In this document: piece by piece, positions 49,183 through 57,896 of the stretch
Layout of the letters: every line of letters begins with the position of its first letter
Numbering within the stretch: the first letter of the stretch is position 1
Source of the DNA: Planctomycetota bacterium
GTDB taxonomy: Bacteria; Planctomycetota; Phycisphaerae; Phycisphaerales; SM1A02
Direction: 5' to 3'
Assembly: GCA_024230295.1 (NCBI GenBank)
Contig: JAAERN010000069.1
Location: 33,752 to 97,751 of the forward strand
Length of the DNA stretch: 64,000 bases
Notes under the pieces: model-generated
The model's database searches: none
The model's input: the letters and a program-made list of their open reading frames with translations, nothing else
Told to the model about the DNA's origin: nothing
Program-made: the position numbers and the translations under genes

Positions 49183-49265
49183 GGGCGTGTACCCAAGTGG
49201 CCAAAGGGGACAGGCTGTAAACCTGTTGGCGTACGCCTTCGGAGGTTCGAATCCTCCCGCGCCCA
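49183..49265 (+). tRNA. tRNA-Tyr (anticodon GUA)
   Basis: Acceptor stem GGGCGTG/CGCGCCC, anticodon loop CT-GTA-AA, long variable arm (TGGCGTACGCCTTCG), T arm GGAGG-TTCGAAT-CCTCC, discriminator A. Confidence 0.9.
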
Positions 49266-49318: not shown

Positions 49319-49392
<74 letters not shown>

Positions 49393-49580: not shown

Positions 49581-49997
49581 TCAGCGGCGGTTTGAATCTT
49601 CTTGAAGCACCGCCCTCATCACGCTCAGCGTCGCATCGCTCACATGATGCTCCATTCCCTCCGCGTCCCGGGCGGCATCAGTGGGGGGGACGCCGATGTG
49701 GAGCAGAAAATCAAGTAGAAGCTGGTGCCGCCTTCGAGATCGCTTCGCCATGGCGGCACCCTTTCGCGTCAATGTGCAAGGTCCATACGGATCCTTATCG
49801 ATCAGCCGCTCTGCCGAGAGCCGCTGCAAGATGCGGGTAACCGTGACGTGGCTGACCCCCATCTTGGCGGAGAGATCTTTGACGCGGCAGGTGGGCTGAG
49901 TTTCGAGAATGTCACCAATGGCCTCGACGTAGTCTTCGGCCGTCTCATTGGCGTGATCCTGGCGTGTCTTGACGAATGTGTTGCTTCGGCGGGGCAT
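49581..49997 (-). CDS. DtxR/MntR/TroR-family metal-dependent transcriptional repressor (138 aa, no SH3-like domain)
   Basis: ETAEDYVEAIGDIL, HTH VKDLSAKMGVSHVTVTRILQRL, LTRKGAAMAKRSRRRHQLLLDFL, and DAEGMEHHVS. It is divergent from the metal ABC operon. Confidence 0.85.
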   Translation of the reverse strand: MPRRSNTFVKTRQDHANETAEDYVEAIGDILETQPTCRVKDLSAKMGVSHVTVTRILQRLSAERLIDKDPYGPCTLTRKGAAMAKRSRRRHQLLLDFLLHIGVPPTDAARDAEGMEHHVSDATLSVMRAVLQEDSNRR

Positions 49998-50045
49998 GAA
50001 GGATCTCCTGCCTGAGAAATCGGTTGACCAAACACCATACTAAGT

Positions 50046-50059
50046 GTAGCATCTGCTAC
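50046..50059. promoter_or_regulatory. candidate DtxR-family operator, palindrome 1
   Basis: Perfect inverted repeat GTAGCA-TC-TGCTAC in the divergent promoter region between the repressor gene and the SBP gene. Confidence 0.45.
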
Positions 50060-50063
50060 CGAC

Positions 50064-50081
50064 ATGTAGCATGGGCTACAT
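50064..50081. promoter_or_regulatory. candidate DtxR-family operator, palindrome 2
   Basis: Perfect inverted repeat ATGTAGC-ATGG-GCTACAT. It shares the GTAGC half-site with palindrome 1 and lies 20 nt upstream of the SBP ATG. Confidence 0.45.
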
Positions 50082-50100
50082 TTTAGAGAGGGCAGATGCC

Positions 50101-51048
50101 ATGTGCCGTTTGATTGCACTTATCGGGGCCTTGGGTATTGCCGGAGCCGTTCACGCTGTACCACTGGACATCGTGGCAACAACCGGCATGGTTGCCGACA
50201 TTGCTCGTCACGTGGCGGGGGACCGGGCTACGGTCGTGAACATCATGGGCGAGGGGGTCGACCCGCACTTGTATAAACCAGTGGCGTCGGATGTGCGACA
50301 CATCATGGGCGCTGATGTCGTCTTCTACAACGGCCTCAAGTTGGAAGGCAGGATGGGGGATATTTTTGAACGCGCCGCAGCAAGAGGGCGGTTCGTCCGC
50401 CCCGTCGCCGCCATGGTGGAGGAAGAATACCTGCTTGAGCCAGCCGATCAACCTGGGCATCCCGACCCCCATGTATGGATGGACGTCAAGGCTTGGATGG
50501 CCGCGACTGAAGCCGTCGCAATAGCACTGTGTCAGGCGGATCCGGAGGGCTGTGAGTCCTATCGGAGTCATGCCGCCACATACATTTCTGAACTTGCGCA
50601 GCTCGATGCGTATGTGCGGGGCGTGATCGCCAGCATTCCCAAGGGGCAGCGGGTTCTTGTGACCGCGCATGACGCATTCAACTACTTCGGCCACGCCTAT
50701 GGCTTGGAGGTCATGGGAATTCAGGGAATCTCAACTGATTCGGAGGCTGGACTCGCCGACGTGACTGGTCTTGTCGACATTCTCGTCGAACGGAAGATCC
50801 CGGCGGTGTTCGTCGAGTCGAGTGTTCCGGACAAGTATGTGCGGGCCCTCATCGAGGGAGCCGGCGCTCGAGGGCATGAGGTCATCGTGGGCGGCGAACT
50901 CTATTCTGATGCGATGGGTAACCCCGGGACATACGAGGGGACATACATCGGCATGATTGATCACAACGTGAGCACGGTCGCGAAAGCGCTCGGTGGTGTC
51001 GTTCCAAAGGGCGGTTTCAGAAGTAGCACCGCAGAAACAGGCAAGTGA
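50101..51048 (+). CDS. metal ABC transporter substrate-binding protein (TroA/MntC/PsaA-like, Mn/Fe type)
   Basis: Start trimmed to the ATG at 50101 (signal MCRLIALIGALGIAGAVHA). DPHLYKP and DPHVWMD motifs are present. It lacks the His-rich loop of ZnuA. Confidence 0.85.
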   Translation: MCRLIALIGALGIAGAVHAVPLDIVATTGMVADIARHVAGDRATVVNIMGEGVDPHLYKPVASDVRHIMGADVVFYNGLKLEGRMGDIFERAAARGRFVRPVAAMVEEEYLLEPADQPGHPDPHVWMDVKAWMAATEAVAIALCQADPEGCESYRSHAATYISELAQLDAYVRGVIASIPKGQRVLVTAHDAFNYFGHAYGLEVMGIQGISTDSEAGLADVTGLVDILVERKIPAVFVESSVPDKYVRALIEGAGARGHEVIVGGELYSDAMGNPGTYEGTYIGMIDHNVSTVAKALGGVVPKGGFRSSTAETGK

Positions 51049-51051
51049 CGA

Positions 51052-51870
51052 GTGGATCGCCCCCCAGAAATTCAGCCAACTGTTGCTCGCGGCTCCGAGC
51101 ACGATCCGGATGCTGCGATCTCAATACATGATCTGACCGTTGCGTACGATCGTCGTCCGGTGTTGTGGGATGTCGATCTCGATGTGCCTACAGGGTGCCT
51201 TGCCGCGATTGTCGGGCCCAACGGGGCTGGAAAAAGTACCTTGATCAAGGCATGCCTTGATCTTCTGCCTCGTGTTTCGGGTGACGTGCGAATGTTCGGC
51301 TCGCCGTGGCGATCCGTACGAAGTCGCGTCGCGTACGTGCCGCAGCGAGAAACCGTTGATTGGGATTTTCCGGTCAGCGCGCTCGATGTCGTTGCCATGG
51401 GAACCTATGGGCGATTGGGCTGGCTGCGGCCTGTTGGAAAGGCGCAAAAACAGGCAGCGATGCACGCGCTCGATCGGGTGGGACTTTCGGACTATGCGGC
51501 CCGGCAGATAAGCCAACTCTCAGGCGGCCAGCAGCAGCGCGTGTTTCTCGCTCGCGCCCTCGTGCAGGAGGCTGATCTCTACCTTATGGACGAGCCGTTC
51601 GCGTCGGTTGACGCCGCAACCGAACAGGCCATCGTGGAAGTGCTTCGCGATCTGCGATCCAGTGGGGCGACGCTCGTGGTTGTGCATCATGATTTGCAGA
51701 CTGTGGCCGAGTACTTCGAGCACATCATTCTTCTCAACATGCGTGTTGTGGCTAGTGGTGCGATGGACGAAACACTGACTGCCGACAATCTTCGCGCGAC
51801 TTATGGTGGACGGCTCACCCTGCTTGAGCAGGCGGCGACTGCGCTTGGGCGGCTCTCGAAGGATCGATGA
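51052..51870 (+). CDS. metal ABC transporter ATP-binding protein
   Basis: GTG start. Walker A GPNGAGKST, signature LSGGQQQRV, Walker B LYLMDEPF. Confidence 0.9.
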   Translation: MDRPPEIQPTVARGSEHDPDAAISIHDLTVAYDRRPVLWDVDLDVPTGCLAAIVGPNGAGKSTLIKACLDLLPRVSGDVRMFGSPWRSVRSRVAYVPQRETVDWDFPVSALDVVAMGTYGRLGWLRPVGKAQKQAAMHALDRVGLSDYAARQISQLSGGQQQRVFLARALVQEADLYLMDEPFASVDAATEQAIVEVLRDLRSSGATLVVVHHDLQTVAEYFEHIILLNMRVVASGAMDETLTADNLRATYGGRLTLLEQAATALGRLSKDR

Positions 51871-53189
51871 TCGCCATGTATCTTGCGACGTCGCTTCTGG
51901 ACATTCTGCTGCTCGCCGATTGGAATACGCGGGTCGTGGTCATCGGTACATCCATGCTTGGAGTTGCGGCCGGTGTGGTCGGGGCGTTTCTTGTGCTGCG
52001 TAAGCGGGCACTGCTTGGCGATACCGTGAGCCACGCCATGCTTCCCGGTGTCGTCGGCGCGTTTCTGGTCATGCAAGCCTTCGGGGGTGGTGGGAAGTCG
52101 TTCGCGGGACTCCTTCTTGGTGCGGCGATCGCTGGAGTGCTTGCAGCGTGGGCAATTCCGGTTCTGCGGCGGGCAACGGGGCTCAAGGACGACGCCATCA
52201 TGGGAGTCGTGCTCGGTGGCGGCTTTGGTTTGGGGATTGCCATGCTGGGCGTTGCGCAGGCCATGCCCGGCGGCAACCAGGCGGGCCTGGAATCCTTTAT
52301 CTATGGCCGGACCGCCTCGATGGTGCAGGACGATGCGATTGGGATCGGAGTGACAGCGGTCGTCACACTTCTGATAGCGGTGCTGCTGGCAAAGGAGTTT
52401 CGGCTGCTGTGTTTCGATGAGTCCTTTGGCCGAGCACTCGGGCGAAAGGAAGGGGTACTTGATCTTGGCTTGATGGTGTTGGCCGTTACCGTCACGGTTG
52501 TAGGATTGCAGGCGGTTGGTCTCATTCTGGTCATCGCACTGCTCATCATTCCAGGGGCAGCGGCCAGGTTTTGGACCGATGAGTTCGTGCGAATGGTGTC
52601 TCTCGCAGGCGTCATCGGTGCAGTGGCGTGCTGGCTTGGCGCATCGATCAGCGCGATGGCCCCAGACCTGCCCGCAGGATCCATCATCGTGCTGACGCTG
52701 TCGTCACTCTTTGGCCTCTCGATGCTTGTCGGAACGCGACGGGGGGCTGTGAAGCGGATCATTCAGTCGAGGAAGCTTCGCCGACGAACCGGATGGCAGC
52801 ATCTTATGCGTGCCGCCGCAGAGTCTCTTGAGTCTCAAGGGACTGATACGTGGACGATCGAACAGTTGTCGCCACTTCGAAGCTGGTCGACCAGCCGACT
52901 TCGAGCACTTCACCGCAGCGCGATTCGGCGGGGCGACATCATCAGTTGCGAGGATGGCTATGCGCTGACGGAATCAGGCCGAACTGCGGCCGATCGTGTT
53001 GTTCGAAACCATCGGCTGTGGGAACTCTTCCTGATTCGGCATGCTGATATCGCCGCGTCGCACGTGGATCGTGATGCCGACATGGTCGAGCATGTTCTCG
53101 GAGACGAGCTGGTGGCCGAGTTGGAGACGATCTTGGCAGGCAGCGACGTGGCCTTGGTCAGTCCGCATGCACTTGGGGGACAGGCATGA
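51867..53189 (+). CDS. ABC-3 family metal permease fused to a C-terminal DtxR-like domain
   Basis: About 290 aa of polytopic ABC-3 core. An extension of about 135 aa follows, with LTESGRTAADRVVRNHRLWELFLIRHADIAASHVDRDADMVEHVLGDE. ATGA overlaps occur at both ends. Confidence 0.85.
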   Translation: MIAMYLATSLLDILLLADWNTRVVVIGTSMLGVAAGVVGAFLVLRKRALLGDTVSHAMLPGVVGAFLVMQAFGGGGKSFAGLLLGAAIAGVLAAWAIPVLRRATGLKDDAIMGVVLGGGFGLGIAMLGVAQAMPGGNQAGLESFIYGRTASMVQDDAIGIGVTAVVTLLIAVLLAKEFRLLCFDESFGRALGRKEGVLDLGLMVLAVTVTVVGLQAVGLILVIALLIIPGAAARFWTDEFVRMVSLAGVIGAVACWLGASISAMAPDLPAGSIIVLTLSSLFGLSMLVGTRRGAVKRIIQSRKLRRRTGWQHLMRAAAESLESQGTDTWTIEQLSPLRSWSTSRLRALHRSAIRRGDIISCEDGYALTESGRTAADRVVRNHRLWELFLIRHADIAASHVDRDADMVEHVLGDELVAELETILAGSDVALVSPHALGGQA

Positions 53190-54493
53190 CACTTGATTAT
53201 GACGGATGGATCATCCTGATTGGAGTGTTGGTTGCAGCATGCTGCGCAATCCCCGGAAGCTGGTTGGTTGTCAGGGGTATGGGCATGATGGGAGACGCAA
53301 TCTCGCATGCGGTGTTGCCGGGCATTGCGATCGGGTTCTTGGTTAGCGGGACGCGGTCGGGCGGCTGGATGTTTCTCGGAGCGGCAATCTCAGGTGTTCT
53401 CGCAGCGGTCATGACCCAGATCGTGCACCGGTGGGGGCGGGTCGATCGCGGAGCTGCCATGGGACTTGTCTTCACCGCGTTCTTTTCGCTCGGGCTGCTG
53501 CTCATTGTGCAGACGGCGGACACTGTGGATCTCGATCCGAACTGTGTGCTCTATGGTGCCATCGAGCTTGCACCATTGGACACGATCTCTCTTGCGGGAC
53601 TGGATGTTCCCCGAATCGTGATGCCATTGGCGATTGTGCTGCTTGCGAATGTTGGGCTGACCCTGCTGCTCTTCAAGGAGTTGCTGGCAACGGCATTTGA
53701 TCCTGGCCTCGCGACGGCCCAGGGGTTTGATGCGAGGTGGCTGCACTATGGCCTCATGGTTTTGACCGCCGCAACCTGCGTTGCTTGTTTCGAAGCTGTT
53801 GGGAGCATCATTACCGTGGCGTTGCTGGTGGCTCCCCCCGCAGCGGCCTTGATGCTCACCCGGCGAATGCGGTGGGTGATCGTGTTGGCAACGGCGCTCG
53901 GGGGGCTGGCTGCAGTGCTGGGACACTTCTCGGCCCTGACCGTCCCGGGTTGGATTCTCGGTGGTGGTCTCGATACTTCGTCGGCAGGAATGATGGCAGT
54001 CGCATCTCTGGTGATCTTTCTCTTCATGGCCACATTTGCTCCGGGCCGCGGCGTGTTGGCGCGGCGATGGGTCTCCAGACGAGATGCGATGCGAGTGGCC
54101 GTAGAAGATGCGCTCGGACTCTTGTTTCGGCTGGAGGAGCGGGCCGTCATGTTGGATCGAGTTGAGGTGGAGGGGCTCCTGCAATCGGATGTCCGGATTG
54201 GTGGCAGGTTGGGCACGGTGCTGACTCAGATCCGGCGAGGATCGCTCGCGGAGGTCGATAACGGTGCTTGGAAGTTGACGGAGTCGGGGCGAACCGCGGC
54301 GAGGAGCCTCGTTCGGGCACACCGGTTGTGGGAGACTTACCTAGCCGGCCGAGCGAGTATTCCATCAAGCCACTTGCACGCCGCGGCCGAGCGTTTGGAG
54401 CACGTGACCGATCCCACGCTGGCTGAGCAGTTGCGGACTGAAGTCGGAGATGCGAGTGATGATCCCCATGGACGTCCGATTCCACCGGGCTGA
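53186..54493 (+). CDS. second ABC-3 family metal permease fused to a C-terminal DtxR-like domain
   Basis: About 295 aa of ABC-3 core. The extension carries LTESGRTAARSLVRAHRLWETYLAGRASIPSSHLHAAAERLEHVTDPTLAEQL. Confidence 0.85.
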   Translation: MTLDYDGWIILIGVLVAACCAIPGSWLVVRGMGMMGDAISHAVLPGIAIGFLVSGTRSGGWMFLGAAISGVLAAVMTQIVHRWGRVDRGAAMGLVFTAFFSLGLLLIVQTADTVDLDPNCVLYGAIELAPLDTISLAGLDVPRIVMPLAIVLLANVGLTLLLFKELLATAFDPGLATAQGFDARWLHYGLMVLTAATCVACFEAVGSIITVALLVAPPAAALMLTRRMRWVIVLATALGGLAAVLGHFSALTVPGWILGGGLDTSSAGMMAVASLVIFLFMATFAPGRGVLARRWVSRRDAMRVAVEDALGLLFRLEERAVMLDRVEVEGLLQSDVRIGGRLGTVLTQIRRGSLAEVDNGAWKLTESGRTAARSLVRAHRLWETYLAGRASIPSSHLHAAAERLEHVTDPTLAEQLRTEVGDASDDPHGRPIPPG

Positions 54494-54548: not shown

Positions 54549-55994
54549 ATGGCATGCTCTTGGAAGGCCGCTGAGAAGGGATACGACGAGGCGTTGACAG
54601 GCGACGATGCTGCGAGGGGTCTGTATCGATCCGTCGTTGACACGCTCCGTCGATTTGACGAGGACGATGTGCGCCGGCGCGAAGAGTTGCAAGAGGTGTC
54701 GCTGGTCAATCAGGGCATCACATTTACGGTCTACGGGGAAGAGGAAGGGACCGAGCGGACATTCCCGTTCGACTTTGTGCCCCGAATAATCGGTTCGGAT
54801 GAGTGGGATCTGCTTGAGCGAGGACTCATTCAACGTGTGACCGCCATCAACTTGTTCCTCGAAGATGTGTACGGCGATCAGCGGTGCTTGCGAGAGAATG
54901 TGGTGCCATTCGACTTGGTGCTCTCTCGAAGCGACTTTCGCCGGGAACTCATCGGAACGCGGCCACGGCACGGTGTGTTCACGCACATCGCCGGGATTGA
55001 CTTGCTTCGCGGGGAGCAGGGTGAGTTCCTGGTCCTGGAAGACAACTGCCGCTGTCCGAGCGGCGTCTCGTATGTCCTTGAAAATCGCAATCTGCTGTCG
55101 CGCGTGTTTCCCGAGATGTTTGCGAACTATGGCGTCCGCCCAGTGGACAGCTATCCACAGATGCTCCTTGACGCGCTTAAATTTGCCGCGCCGAGGGGAC
55201 GAGAGCGACCATCTGTCGCGGTGTTGACACCTGGCCTGAACAACAGTGCCTATTTTGAGCACTCTTTTCTCGCTAGAGAGATGGGCGTGCCGCTTGTCGA
55301 AGGCCGCGATCTGATTGTTGAAAACGACCAAGTGTCAATGCGAACAACTCGGGGTCGCCAGCGGGTGGATGTGCTCTACCGCCGCGTAGATGACGCGTTT
55401 CTGGATCCGGTGGTTTTTAATGCTGGCAGTTTGCTAGGAGTTCCTGGTCTTATTCATGCGTGGCGGTCCGGGAACGTCACGATTGCCAATGCCCCCGGGG
55501 CTGGTGTTGCGGACGACAAGTCGATCTACCCATGGATGCCGGAGATCATCCGTTTCTTTCTCGATGAGGAACCGCTGCTGGCGCAGGTCCATACCTACAT
55601 TGGTCGAAGGCCCGAAGATGCGGCGTTTATCCGAGACAACCTTTCTTCGCTGGTCGTGAAACTGACCGATGGGGCGGGTGGATACGGCATGCTGGTTGGA
55701 CCCACAGCAAGCGCATCGGAAATAGCAGAGTTTGGAAGGATCTTTGACGCACATCCCGAGGCCTACATCGCTCAGCCGCTTGTGGAGTTCTCATCGCATC
55801 CGACCTGGATAGAAAACGGTTACGTAGCGCGGCATGTGGATATGCGGCCGTTTGTCTTGTATGGCGAGACGATTCAAGTGCTTCCGGGCGGGTTGACGCG
55901 GGTCGCACTGGAGGAGGGGTCGTATGTCGTTAACTCATCGCAGGGTGGTGGCAGTAAGGATACGTGGGTGCTCGCGGAGGATCTCGTCCGATGA
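54549..55994 (+). CDS. circularly permuted ATP-grasp (type 2) family protein
   Basis: 481 aa. GITFTVYGEEEGTERTFPFDFVPRII and NAPGAGVADDKSIYPWMPEII are typical of the former DUF404/DUF407 (CP_ATPgrasp_2) family. An alpha-E gene follows. Confidence 0.8.
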   Translation: MACSWKAAEKGYDEALTGDDAARGLYRSVVDTLRRFDEDDVRRREELQEVSLVNQGITFTVYGEEEGTERTFPFDFVPRIIGSDEWDLLERGLIQRVTAINLFLEDVYGDQRCLRENVVPFDLVLSRSDFRRELIGTRPRHGVFTHIAGIDLLRGEQGEFLVLEDNCRCPSGVSYVLENRNLLSRVFPEMFANYGVRPVDSYPQMLLDALKFAAPRGRERPSVAVLTPGLNNSAYFEHSFLAREMGVPLVEGRDLIVENDQVSMRTTRGRQRVDVLYRRVDDAFLDPVVFNAGSLLGVPGLIHAWRSGNVTIANAPGAGVADDKSIYPWMPEIIRFFLDEEPLLAQVHTYIGRRPEDAAFIRDNLSSLVVKLTDGAGGYGMLVGPTASASEIAEFGRIFDAHPEAYIAQPLVEFSSHPTWIENGYVARHVDMRPFVLYGETIQVLPGGLTRVALEEGSYVVNSSQGGGSKDTWVLAEDLVR

Positions 55995-56935
55995 GCATCA
56001 TGCTTTCGAGATCCGCTGAGAACATCTACTGGATGGGGCGATACCTGGAGCGCGCATCGAATCTGTGCCGCATGCTTCAGGTTGCAGAGCAGTTGACGGT
56101 TGAAATCCGTGGTTTGGTACCGGATGTAGCAGTGGATTTCTGGGCGGGCTTTGCAAAGGTTTACCCAGGATCGCCGGAAGTAAGTGGCGATGTGGATGAA
56201 GTACGCGTTGCGGGACTTCACACGTGGTTGCTCGGACGCAGGAGCACACTGTCGGTTGCCACATCGATCTGCCACGCTCGCGAGAATGCCCTCGCGATCC
56301 GTGAGTACTTGACTCGCGAGGTATTCGAGCAGATCAATGAGTGCTGGCTTCAACTCGATGCGGGCGTCCGTGGCGAGGCGCATGCCGATGCCCTGCTTGG
56401 ACAGGTGCAACAAGCGATCTTCGGGATTGGCGGGACCATTGGTCGGACGCTCATTCGTGATGAGGCATGGATCTTTCTTGACCTGGGCGTCATGTTGGAG
56501 CGGGTCTATCGCGTACTCATGCTGCTTCGGCACCGCCTGCCTCAGCTCATGGGTACGCCTGAGGACATTGATATTCCAGTTCATCACGCGCTGCTTCGAA
56601 GCGTGCTGCGGTCTGCTGGATCGTTGGAGAATTACCGACGCGTCCATGGTGCAGCCATGACTCCGAGGCAAGTGTGGAGCTTCTTGTTCTTTGATCCCCA
56701 GTCTCCGCACAGCGTCGCATTTGGCATTACGCAACTCGAAGAGGATCTCGGGCAGATTGAGCGTGGGGGAGTGCTGACTGACGCAGCGAGGCAGGTGGGT
56801 CGGCTGGCTTCACAGCTTCGGTACGAATCGCAAGATCTTCTTGGTCGTCACGACTTCGCGACGATTTGCGAGGGGCTCGGGAGTGACGTGGAGCGGATTC
56901 ACGAGTCACTGACACGGCTGTATTTCACGGTATAG
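55991..56935 (+). CDS. alpha-E domain protein (former DUF403)
   Basis: Start trimmed to the ATG at 55991, which overlaps the upstream stop (ATGA). The N-terminus MLSRSAENIYWMGRYLERA is the hallmark of the alpha-E family. Confidence 0.8.
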   Translation: MSIMLSRSAENIYWMGRYLERASNLCRMLQVAEQLTVEIRGLVPDVAVDFWAGFAKVYPGSPEVSGDVDEVRVAGLHTWLLGRRSTLSVATSICHARENALAIREYLTREVFEQINECWLQLDAGVRGEAHADALLGQVQQAIFGIGGTIGRTLIRDEAWIFLDLGVMLERVYRVLMLLRHRLPQLMGTPEDIDIPVHHALLRSVLRSAGSLENYRRVHGAAMTPRQVWSFLFFDPQSPHSVAFGITQLEEDLGQIERGGVLTDAARQVGRLASQLRYESQDLLGRHDFATICEGLGSDVERIHESLTRLYFTV

Positions 56936-56942
56936 GAAACTC

Positions 56943-57896
56943 ATGCTTCTCAGCATTGAACACAATCTTCGCTTTCAGTACTCCGCTTTCGTTCGTGAGT
57001 CCCACATGGAGATTCGCGTGGAGCCGCGAGCATTGGCCGGGCAGGCGGTGCACGATTTTGATTTGGCAATTGGGCCACATGCGCAGCCTAGTCGGCATGA
57101 AGACTGGATGGGCAATGCGCTTCATTGGTTCTCGATCACGGATTACCACGATCGTGTCGAGGTTGCGTGCAGATCGCTCGTCGAAACGAGTCCGTCGGAT
57201 CGAGACCCTCAGACATTGGAATTCCCGGTTCGTGATATGCCTGAGCAGCGCGAGATATGGGACTACATCCAGTTTGTCGGGCCGGTGGTGCGGAGCGAGC
57301 GACTCAAGGTGCTGGCGGACGATCTGCAACTCTCAGATTGCGAGACCGTAGGCGCGATTGTTACGCGAATGGCGACTTCGCTCAGAGATCACATCATGTA
57401 TCGATCATTAGTCACGCATGCCCATTCGACGAGTGACGATGCGCTCGAAGCGGAAGCGGGCGTGTGTCAGGACTTTGCCCACATTGCACTTGGACTGCTT
57501 CGATTGCAGGGAGTTCCGTGCCGATATGTCAACGGCTACTTGCATGTGGACAATGCTTCGAGACCTTCAGAGAGCCATGCATGGATCGAGCTATGGACCC
57601 CCGAGTGTGGCTGGGTGGGGTTCGATCCGACGCATGCGTGCGAGGTCGGCGAGCGTTACGTCGTGATTGCGTTTGGTCGGAACTATGCTGATGTGCCGCC
57701 AAACCGGGGCATTTTTCGTGGTGCGGCAGAGGAATTGCTCTCGGTCGAGGTTCGCACAAGCCCCGTCGAGCGGCGAGAGCGCCATCATGCCGAGGCACCA
57801 CTCATTATGGACGTTCCTGTATTTGCTGAGGCCCCGGATCGTGCCGCCGTGCATGAGCAACGGGGCGATGAGGCCGCAGCGCAGCAGCAGCAGTAG
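56943..57896 (+). CDS. transglutaminase-family protein (Bact_transglu_N plus transglutaminase core)
   Basis: Catalytic Cys context GVCQDFAHIALGLLRLQGVPCRYVNGY, then HAWIELW and GFDPTH (the Cys-His-Asp triad). Confidence 0.85.
   Translation: MLLSIEHNLRFQYSAFVRESHMEIRVEPRALAGQAVHDFDLAIGPHAQPSRHEDWMGNALHWFSITDYHDRVEVACRSLVETSPSDRDPQTLEFPVRDMPEQREIWDYIQFVGPVVRSERLKVLADDLQLSDCETVGAIVTRMATSLRDHIMYRSLVTHAHSTSDDALEAEAGVCQDFAHIALGLLRLQGVPCRYVNGYLHVDNASRPSESHAWIELWTPECGWVGFDPTHACEVGERYVVIAFGRNYADVPPNRGIFRGAAEELLSVEVRTSPVERRERHHAEAPLIMDVPVFAEAPDRAAVHEQRGDEAAAQQQQ

Follow-up and report, generated by a model that had tools for sequence, protein, structure and literature searches.

Why does a metal importer carry a repressor-like module on each of its two membrane subunits, with a free-standing repressor encoded beside it? 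This question is raised by the locus at positions 49,581-54,493 of the window, i.e. the whole analysed stretch of 64,000 nucleotides from a planctomycete, Planctomycetota bacterium (Phycisphaerales; GenBank assembly GCA_024230295.1, contig JAAERN010000069.1, positions 33,752 to 97,751). Here an ATP-binding cassette (ABC) importer operon, with genes for a substrate-binding protein (SBP), an ATPase, permease 1 and permease 2 in this order, lies next to a divergent repressor gene. The earlier note on this DNA, which had only the letters to go by, had proposed an A-B-C-D operon with three DtxR modules, one soluble and two attached to the permeases, and this count is borne out by domain and fold evidence. 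The rarity of the double fusion that it had implied is not: our survey shows a conserved, common design, one of four coexisting variants. As to function, we tentatively favour processing of the tails to repressors, as described for YtgR of Chlamydia, over a sensor that acts in place on the transporter.

The permease tails

In Pfam profile searches both permeases gave ABC-3 and, in their tails, Fe_dep_repr_C, at residues 368-423 of permease 1 (E 1.6e-14, 54.1 bits) and 365-433 of permease 2 (E 3.3e-20, 72.3 bits), with a cut-off of 27 bits in each case; Fe_dep_repress, the N-terminal DNA-binding domain, was sought in both tails and called in neither. When 26 free regulators were used to build a profile of the DNA-binding domain, this scored about 0 bits on the tails, and about 0 also on chlamydial YtgCR. 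AlphaFold2 models of the two permeases, built on 82 and 86 homologs (predicted local distance difference test, pLDDT, 88 and 85; predicted template-modelling score, pTM, 0.81 and 0.76), contain a winged helix-turn-helix (HTH) in both tails at high confidence, in an order that runs from the last membrane helix through a loop of about 5 residues and a helix of about 30 residues to the HTH, a two-stranded wing and a helical metal/dimerisation domain; in permease 1 the pLDDT exceeds 90 over residues 294-391. With Foldseek, tail 2 was matched to two-domain DR2539/IdeR/DtxR over about 130 columns (root-mean-square deviation about 2 Å, template-modelling (TM) score 0.82-0.84), and tail 1 to DtxR 1ddn_A over 114 columns (TM 0.67). 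By sequence, tail 2 aligns to residues ~10-133 of DtxR/IdeR and tail 1 just over ~50-120, the PDB matches of the latter being SloR, ScaR and DtxR. The SH3-like/FeoA third domain of the DtxR, IdeR and TroR type is absent: both tails stop right after domain 2, like two-domain MntR and DR2539, and both have a C-terminal xPH motif (SPH in permease 1, DPHG in permease 2). Each tail is thus modelled as a complete two-domain DtxR fold, consisting of winged helix and metal/dimerisation domain, and Pfam, PDB sequence matches, and AlphaFold2 with Foldseek agree on the DtxR-like C-terminal domain that had been claimed for each permease.

For comparison of the metal ligands, the two tails were put in register by profile-profile alignment, with M10, H79, E83, H98, C102, E105 and H106 (DtxR numbering) as reference positions. 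All of these are filled, by H312, H382, E386, D401, D405, E408 and H409 in permease 1 and by D308, H379, E383, H398, E402, E405 and H406 in permease 2. In alignments of more than 80 orthologs each (82 and 86 sequences for the two permeases), the positions of permease 1 are invariant or at least 90% conserved, and those of permease 2 are invariant apart from E402, which is about 80% conserved. Every ligand in both tails is a nitrogen or oxygen donor; going by the selectivity of DtxR and MntR, we take such sets to resemble Mn-type rather than Fe-type sites. In the models, the ligand at the M10 position (H312 and D308, respectively) sits on the helix that is linked to the last membrane helix by about 5 ordered residues. 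The recognition helices of the tails stay Arg-rich and strongly basic (mean charge +4.9 and +3.8) despite sequence drift, with the winged-helix fold kept.

The likeness to Chlamydia YtgC-YtgR that the earlier note had drawn proved to be one of descent. In phmmer comparisons with the chlamydial YtgCR sequences of PMC7755916 (Supplementary Data 5), the tails gave E-values of 1e-12 to 1e-18 and the cores of 1e-13 to 1e-31; the motifs LVRAHRLWE(S/T)YL and DPHxxxIP are common to the window tails and YtgCR, and the Pfam pattern of YtgCR is that of the window permeases, i.e. ABC-3 and Fe_dep_repr_C, with Fe_dep_repress undetected. Judged by these alignments, the tails are homologs of YtgR and each permease is a YtgCR-type fusion. 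YtgR is reported to be cleaved from YtgC and to mediate iron-dependent transcriptional repression (PMC5599777; PMC7755916), and to bind the ytg promoter (PMC5599777). The profile miss is therefore not evidence of lost DNA binding, because YtgR, a reported DNA binder, gives the same miss, and an early reading of ours that the tails had lost DNA binding, which relied on this miss and on weak HTH conservation, was withdrawn. A divergent winged helix that escapes detection by profiles appears to be a trait of the whole fused clade rather than a sign of lost DNA binding.

Both fusions are real, because an independently assembled ENA scaffold (L081) has the identical gene set, with proteins of 315, 272, 440 and 435 residues, and because core and tail share a single frame in more than 80 orthologs of each permease and in hundreds of database proteins. 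A frameshift or assembly artefact as the source of the fusions is ruled out on these grounds.

Distribution and descent of the fusions

The distribution of the fusions was followed in two surveys. Survey 1 comprised 80 genome loci and was seeded on the fused permease 2, which makes it blind to operons with an unfused second permease; survey 2 comprised nine contexts seeded on distant permease-1-type proteins. In survey 1, the double fusion was found in 28 of the 35 two-permease loci and a fused second permease alone in the other 7, and 45 loci, mostly from Saprospiraceae, had a single fused permease. In survey 2, six contexts were double-fused, including a Vulcanimicrobiota metagenome-assembled genome (MAG) and Phycisphaerales AB-hyl4, and three had permease 1 alone fused (Coraliomargarita, a Verrucomicrobiae MAG and one other). 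Four variants coexist: both permeases fused, the first only, the second only, and a single fused permease. Hosts of the double fusion include Planctomycetota, Vulcanimicrobiota and a Myxococcales MAG, and the window locus is a typical member of this widespread variant, not a one-off. At least one tail is kept in every locus examined, the loci having been picked by similarity to fused proteins. Two tails per transporter, in double-fused or one-permease fused forms, are found in 73 of the 80 loci of survey 1; that this is the rule was considered and dropped, given the seeding bias of that survey and the 3 of 9 contexts of survey 2 with an unfused permease 2. An obligatory heterodimer of permease-1 and permease-2 tails for the whole family is excluded by the permease-1-type tail that stands alone in Verrucomicrobia. 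Of the 22 double-fused loci that were informative on this point, 16 have a free DtxR/MntR gene adjacent to the operon, as do 7 of the 9 contexts of survey 2.

Distance trees group the permease-1 tails in one clade and likewise most of the permease-1 cores; the forms with a single permease come out nearest to permease 2, and the YtgC core is closer to permease 1. The two tails are old paralogs, each inherited with its own permease core, and the simplest history is that an old fused permease gene was duplicated, with later loss of a tail in some lineages, Chlamydia among them. The fusion type itself (YtgCR) was known already, and a review counts orthologous permease-repressor fusions in 11 phyla (PMC5599777). 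A fusion of both permeases, or a regular pairing with a free regulator, was found described nowhere in the searchable literature, which excluded the 2012 primary paper on the distribution of the fusion (Thompson et al., PNAS).

Several loci show further arrangements. At L044:1-2866, one frame of 955 residues runs through core and tail of permease 1 and then core and tail of permease 2; either the two fused permeases are truly joined in translation, or the ATGA overlap of this short contig contains an indel. The single fused permeases of L040-L080 (Saprospiraceae and other Bacteroidota) have about 497 residues, 60-80 more than those of the window, and many of these loci have no SBP or ATPase gene within 6 kb, so that the fused permease looks orphan. 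Outer-membrane channel genes form part of some operons, of the OprB family in Verrucomicrobia (L082:1683-2990, L083:1731-2981) and of the Phenol_MetA_deg family at L085:3277-4131. Permease genes split into two open reading frames (ORFs) each, being pseudogenes or sequencing errors, were seen for permease 1 in L023:4042-4986 and for permease 2 in L088:5964-7324. A free three-domain DtxR (Fe_dep_repress, Fe_dep_repr_C and FeoA) directly follows permease 2 in two double-fused operons (L084:7755-8597, L086:7183-8088).

The importer, its free MntR and its operators

The ORF check placed all five ORFs, in the operon order given above, and the four-base ATGA stop/start overlaps at the ATPase-permease 1 and permease 1-permease 2 junctions where the earlier note had put them (Table 1). 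For the SBP, the nearest solved structure is TroA of Treponema pallidum (1toa, E 3.8e-76), with identical motifs DPHLY, DPHVW, TAHDAF and SDAMG, which hold the His/His/His/Asp ligands of TroA. Closest to TroA and with identical ligand motifs, the SBP could therefore take Mn, Zn or Fe; Mn is the most likely transported metal, with Fe or Zn possible. The best NCBIfam matches of the ATPase are Mn/Fe ABC ATPases, each under its own cut-off, and in Foldseek searches both membrane cores match PsaC best (7kyp, 7kyo; E ~1e-13), with TM scores of 0.87 for permease 1 and 0.83 for permease 2. The closest database matches of the locus proteins are from Phycisphaerales MAGs. The locus, from a marine Phycisphaerales planctomycete, almost certainly encodes a Tro/Ytg-type cluster A-I divalent-metal ABC importer with its genes in A-B-C-D order, and we have very little doubt about its identity and anatomy as assigned here.

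The free repressor has the DtxR pattern ascribed to it earlier (Table 1), and passes the NCBIfam MntR equivalog NF008273, which is of the enterobacterial type, narrowly, with 155.4 bits against a cut-off of 153. Among 11 orthologs its recognition helix, GVSHVTVTRILQRL, hardly varies, and its residues D22, E25, H91, E113, E116 and H117 are at the ligand positions of Bacillus subtilis MntR. The palindromes that had been seen between repressor and operon are exact, and are the sole two GTAGC-N4-GCTAC matches in the window. The -10 hexamer of the importer promoter falls within box 1, and the two boxes together overlap the -10 and start region; an in-frame ATG at 50071, upstream of the SBP start at 50101, overlaps the operator and is the less likely start. 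TTGAC is kept at the same position in L001, L003, L004, L006, L010 and L011, and the paired boxes with TTGAC are conserved across those related loci in which an MntR gene is encoded divergently. The most economical reading of the promoter data is repression by MntR through these boxes, and it is most likely that the free MntR so represses the operon when metal is plentiful.

In more distant loci, the type of box tracks the neighbouring free regulator, GTAGC-N4-GCTAC going with MntR-type regulators and TTTGAC..GTCAAA with three-domain DtxR, and fused tails are found in both groups. The promoters of L012, L025 and L039 have palindromes of the TTTGAC..GTCAAA type and no MntR boxes, the three-domain DtxR being of about 220 residues; in L025 the palindrome stands with no regulator gene in view. 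The promoter of L035 (Xenobia) carries TTAGATGCATCTAA.

Table 1. Features of the importer locus, in window coordinates (aa, amino acids)
Feature	Position	Strand	Description
Free-standing MntR-type repressor gene, 138 aa	49581..49997	-	Divergent from importer operon; Pfam Fe_dep_repress + Fe_dep_repr_C
Sigma-70-like promoter of importer operon, TTGACC-17-TAGCAT	50024..50052	+	Consensus scan
MntR box 1, GTAGC-N4-GCTAC, GTAGCATCTGCTAC	50046..50059	.	Exact palindrome; kept in 8 related loci
MntR box 2, ATGTAGC-N4-GCTACAT, GTAGCATGGGCTAC at 50066-50079	50064..50081	.	7-4-7 palindrome; centre 20 bp from box 1
TroA-like periplasmic SBP with signal peptide	50101..51048	+	Pfam ZnuA, E 9e-78; 315 aa
ABC ATPase, GTG start	51052..51870	+	Pfam ABC_tran; 272 aa
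Permease 1, whole gene, 440 aa	51867..53189	+	ABC-3 core + DtxR-like tail
Permease 1 ABC-3 membrane core, aa 1-293	51867..52745	+	Pfam ABC-3 (23-288), E 4e-56
Permease 1 tail, aa 294-440	52746..53189	+	Long helix 1, winged HTH aa 331-367, metal/dimerisation domain aa 369-425, terminal SPH motif
Permease 2, whole gene, 435 aa	53186..54493	+	ABC-3 core + DtxR-like tail
Permease 2 ABC-3 membrane core, aa 1-289	53186..54052	+	Pfam ABC-3 (9-281), E 4e-42
Permease 2 tail, aa 290-435	54053..54493	+	Helix 1, winged HTH aa 325-364, metal/dimerisation domain aa 366-420, DPHGRPIP motif

On the repressor side, genes for tRNA-Tyr(GTA) (49183-49265, +) and tRNA-Pro(CGG) (49319-49392, +) lie just past the 3' end of the mntR gene. 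Directly 3' of the importer is a three-gene cluster (54549-57896, +) for a circularly permuted ATP-grasp, an Alpha-E and a transglutaminase-like protein, with Pfam calls taken from the identical scaffold L081; a terminator-like site was looked for in the 55-base gap between the permease 2 stop and this cluster, and none was found.

Roles of the tails and related systems

In the reading that we favour, the importer operon is co-transcribed from the promoter overlapping box 1, with the divergent MntR most likely repressing it when metal is plentiful, and both tails would bind cytoplasmic metal and so add a second, transporter-linked layer of negative feedback. For this, the permeases would be proteolytically processed to give metal-dependent DtxR-like dimers, either homodimers or possibly mixed ones, and the released dimers would bind DNA targets other than the MntR boxes. 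We put forward such YtgR-like processing, on the ground of homology with YtgR of Chlamydia, as the most likely route, though plausible rather than probable. It is favoured over a transport sensor acting in place because the tails are homologous to YtgR and because single-fused operons are frequent: where a tail is fused to either permease alone, a single transporter cannot assemble a DtxR-type dimer, so that a mechanism independent of two tails per complex is favoured. Conservation of the ligands, retention of the winged-helix fold and the basic recognition helices all point to selection on the tails.

Several observations weigh against this reading. A second conserved operator, one for the tails, was sought in the promoter, and no element beyond TTGAC and the two MntR boxes was found; the box type follows the free regulator, the tails occurring with either type; and in 12 genomes (the window and 11 related loci) the HTH of the tails is 41-42% identical and that of the free MntR 70%, with 65-74% for the metal domains of the tails. 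This drift of the HTH relative to the metal domain, together with a promoter without other elements and a box type that follows the free regulator, indicates that the conserved MntR boxes are not what the tails recognise, and the tails appear to read no conserved operator. That a free DtxR/MntR gene usually adjoins the fused permeases argues that the tails are not simply the repressor of the operon. At the expected protease site, the AlphaFold2 models have no flexible linker and show the ordered connection of about 5 residues. The YtgR product has been reported at ~28-30 kDa and is larger than the DtxR module alone (PMC5599777; PMC7755916), so that the mechanism of release is only partly worked out even in Chlamydia.

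A rival reading is trans-inhibition, in which the attached tails would bind metal when its cytoplasmic level rises, pair on one transporter (permease 1 tail with permease 2 tail) and lock the importer in an inactive state via the rigid helix, with transcription left to the free MntR. A canonical free regulator with matching conserved boxes already accounts for transcriptional control, and tails and free regulator co-occur in most loci; the HTH is the least and the metal/dimer domain the most conserved part of the tails; no flexible linker is predicted, and the M10-position ligand is on a helix continuing from the last membrane helix, with ~5 ordered residues between; and 73 of the 80 permease-2-seeded loci provide two tails per transporter. 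On the other side, operons with one tail per transporter are frequent, making up 7 of the 35 two-permease loci of survey 1 and 3 of the 9 contexts of survey 2, with Chlamydia as a further case, and YtgR, with the same sequence pattern, is a reported DNA binder, which means that weak HTH conservation is no counter-evidence to DNA binding. The retained winged helix with its Arg-rich recognition helix would also go unexplained, unless this surface contacts the ATPase or lipid. We know of no case in which a DtxR fold serves as an allosteric domain, nor of one in which the membrane subunits of an ABC importer carry a regulatory domain, and consider a sensor of this kind unlikely on balance. In a more specific form, which seems to us distinctly improbable, the two different tails would pair on the intact transporter into a heterodimeric DtxR-like sensor that shuts the importer at sufficient metal, with MntR handling transcription. 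If this were true, the membrane subunits of an ABC importer would for the first time be seen to carry a trans-inhibition domain, and the DtxR fold to serve as an allosteric gate instead of a transcription factor; YtgR of Chlamydia would then be a derived, secondarily freed version.

The tails might also act as repressors without being cleaved, binding DNA at the membrane and drawing target promoters to the transporter, for which the models provide complete winged helices and basic recognition helices. In DtxR/IdeR-DNA complexes the N-terminus is near the DNA, and a short rigid N-terminal tether would put the membrane on the DNA-binding side; moreover, the promoter yielded no conserved operator attributable to the tails. 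We regard such tethered repressors as very doubtful, although repression of a reporter by full-length YtgC has been seen in E. coli, and a review raises the membrane-anchored possibility (PMC5599777). That the tails are vestiges of an old fusion, or an artefact, without present function, which would fit a DNA-binding domain missed by Pfam and the loss of either tail in some lineages, is scarcely credible in view of metal ligands invariant across more than 80 orthologs of each permease, confidently predicted folds, an identical independent assembly and at least one tail in every locus, among loci chosen by similarity to fused proteins.

Chlamydia YtgCR is, to our knowledge, the sole studied permease-repressor fusion, and has been regarded as a peculiarity of a reduced genome. 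The fusion is part of an old and large family that spans several phyla of free-living bacteria, with two DtxR tails per transporter and a separate canonical DtxR/MntR repressor as the usual layout. Simple redundancy would hardly explain why one operon has three related sensors. The data so far establish no new mechanism; the pattern is informative and experimentally tractable. Whether the tails are released as transcription factors, as we tentatively favour, or are sensors acting on the pump is testable in cultivable planctomycetes with the double fusion, such as Poriferisphaera sp. WC338 and Rosistilla oblonga, and the answer would also clarify how YtgR acts in Chlamydia.

Among known systems, YtgABCD of Chlamydia trachomatis (YtgCR, CT069/CTL0325) shares with the window the gene order SBP, ATPase, permease, permease, and an ABC-3 permease fused to a two-domain DtxR module without SH3 domain. 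It differs in that YtgC alone is described as a fusion, whereas both permeases are fused in the window; YtgD presumably has no tail. The window further has a free MntR with its own conserved boxes, and we know of no free DtxR/MntR gene in Chlamydia. The ligands of the window tails are all N/O donors.

In Treponema, a DtxR-family regulator, TroR, is reported to be encoded with the tro operon (PMC2628430). Compared with TroABCD-TroR of T. pallidum and T. denticola, the window SBP is most TroA-like and there are two permeases in each system; TroR is separate and encoded after troD, whereas the DtxR modules of the window are in frame on both permeases, and its free regulator is MntR-type, divergent and upstream. 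In L084 and L086, a free DtxR gene occupies the place of troR in addition to the two fused tails. In the Mn importer PsaBC(A) of Streptococcus pneumoniae, PsaC, the best fold match of the window membrane cores, is encoded by one gene, forms a homodimer and lacks a cytoplasmic DtxR tail. The enterobacterial MntR consensus, AACATAGCnnnnGCTATGTT (PMC1698941), has the same 5-4-5 layout as the window boxes, and the likeness extends to a free regulator that passes the MntR equivalog; the half-site in the window is GTAGC, not ATAGC, and there are two boxes spaced by 20 bp. In contrast to the enterobacterial system, the transporter regulated in the window itself has two further DtxR modules.

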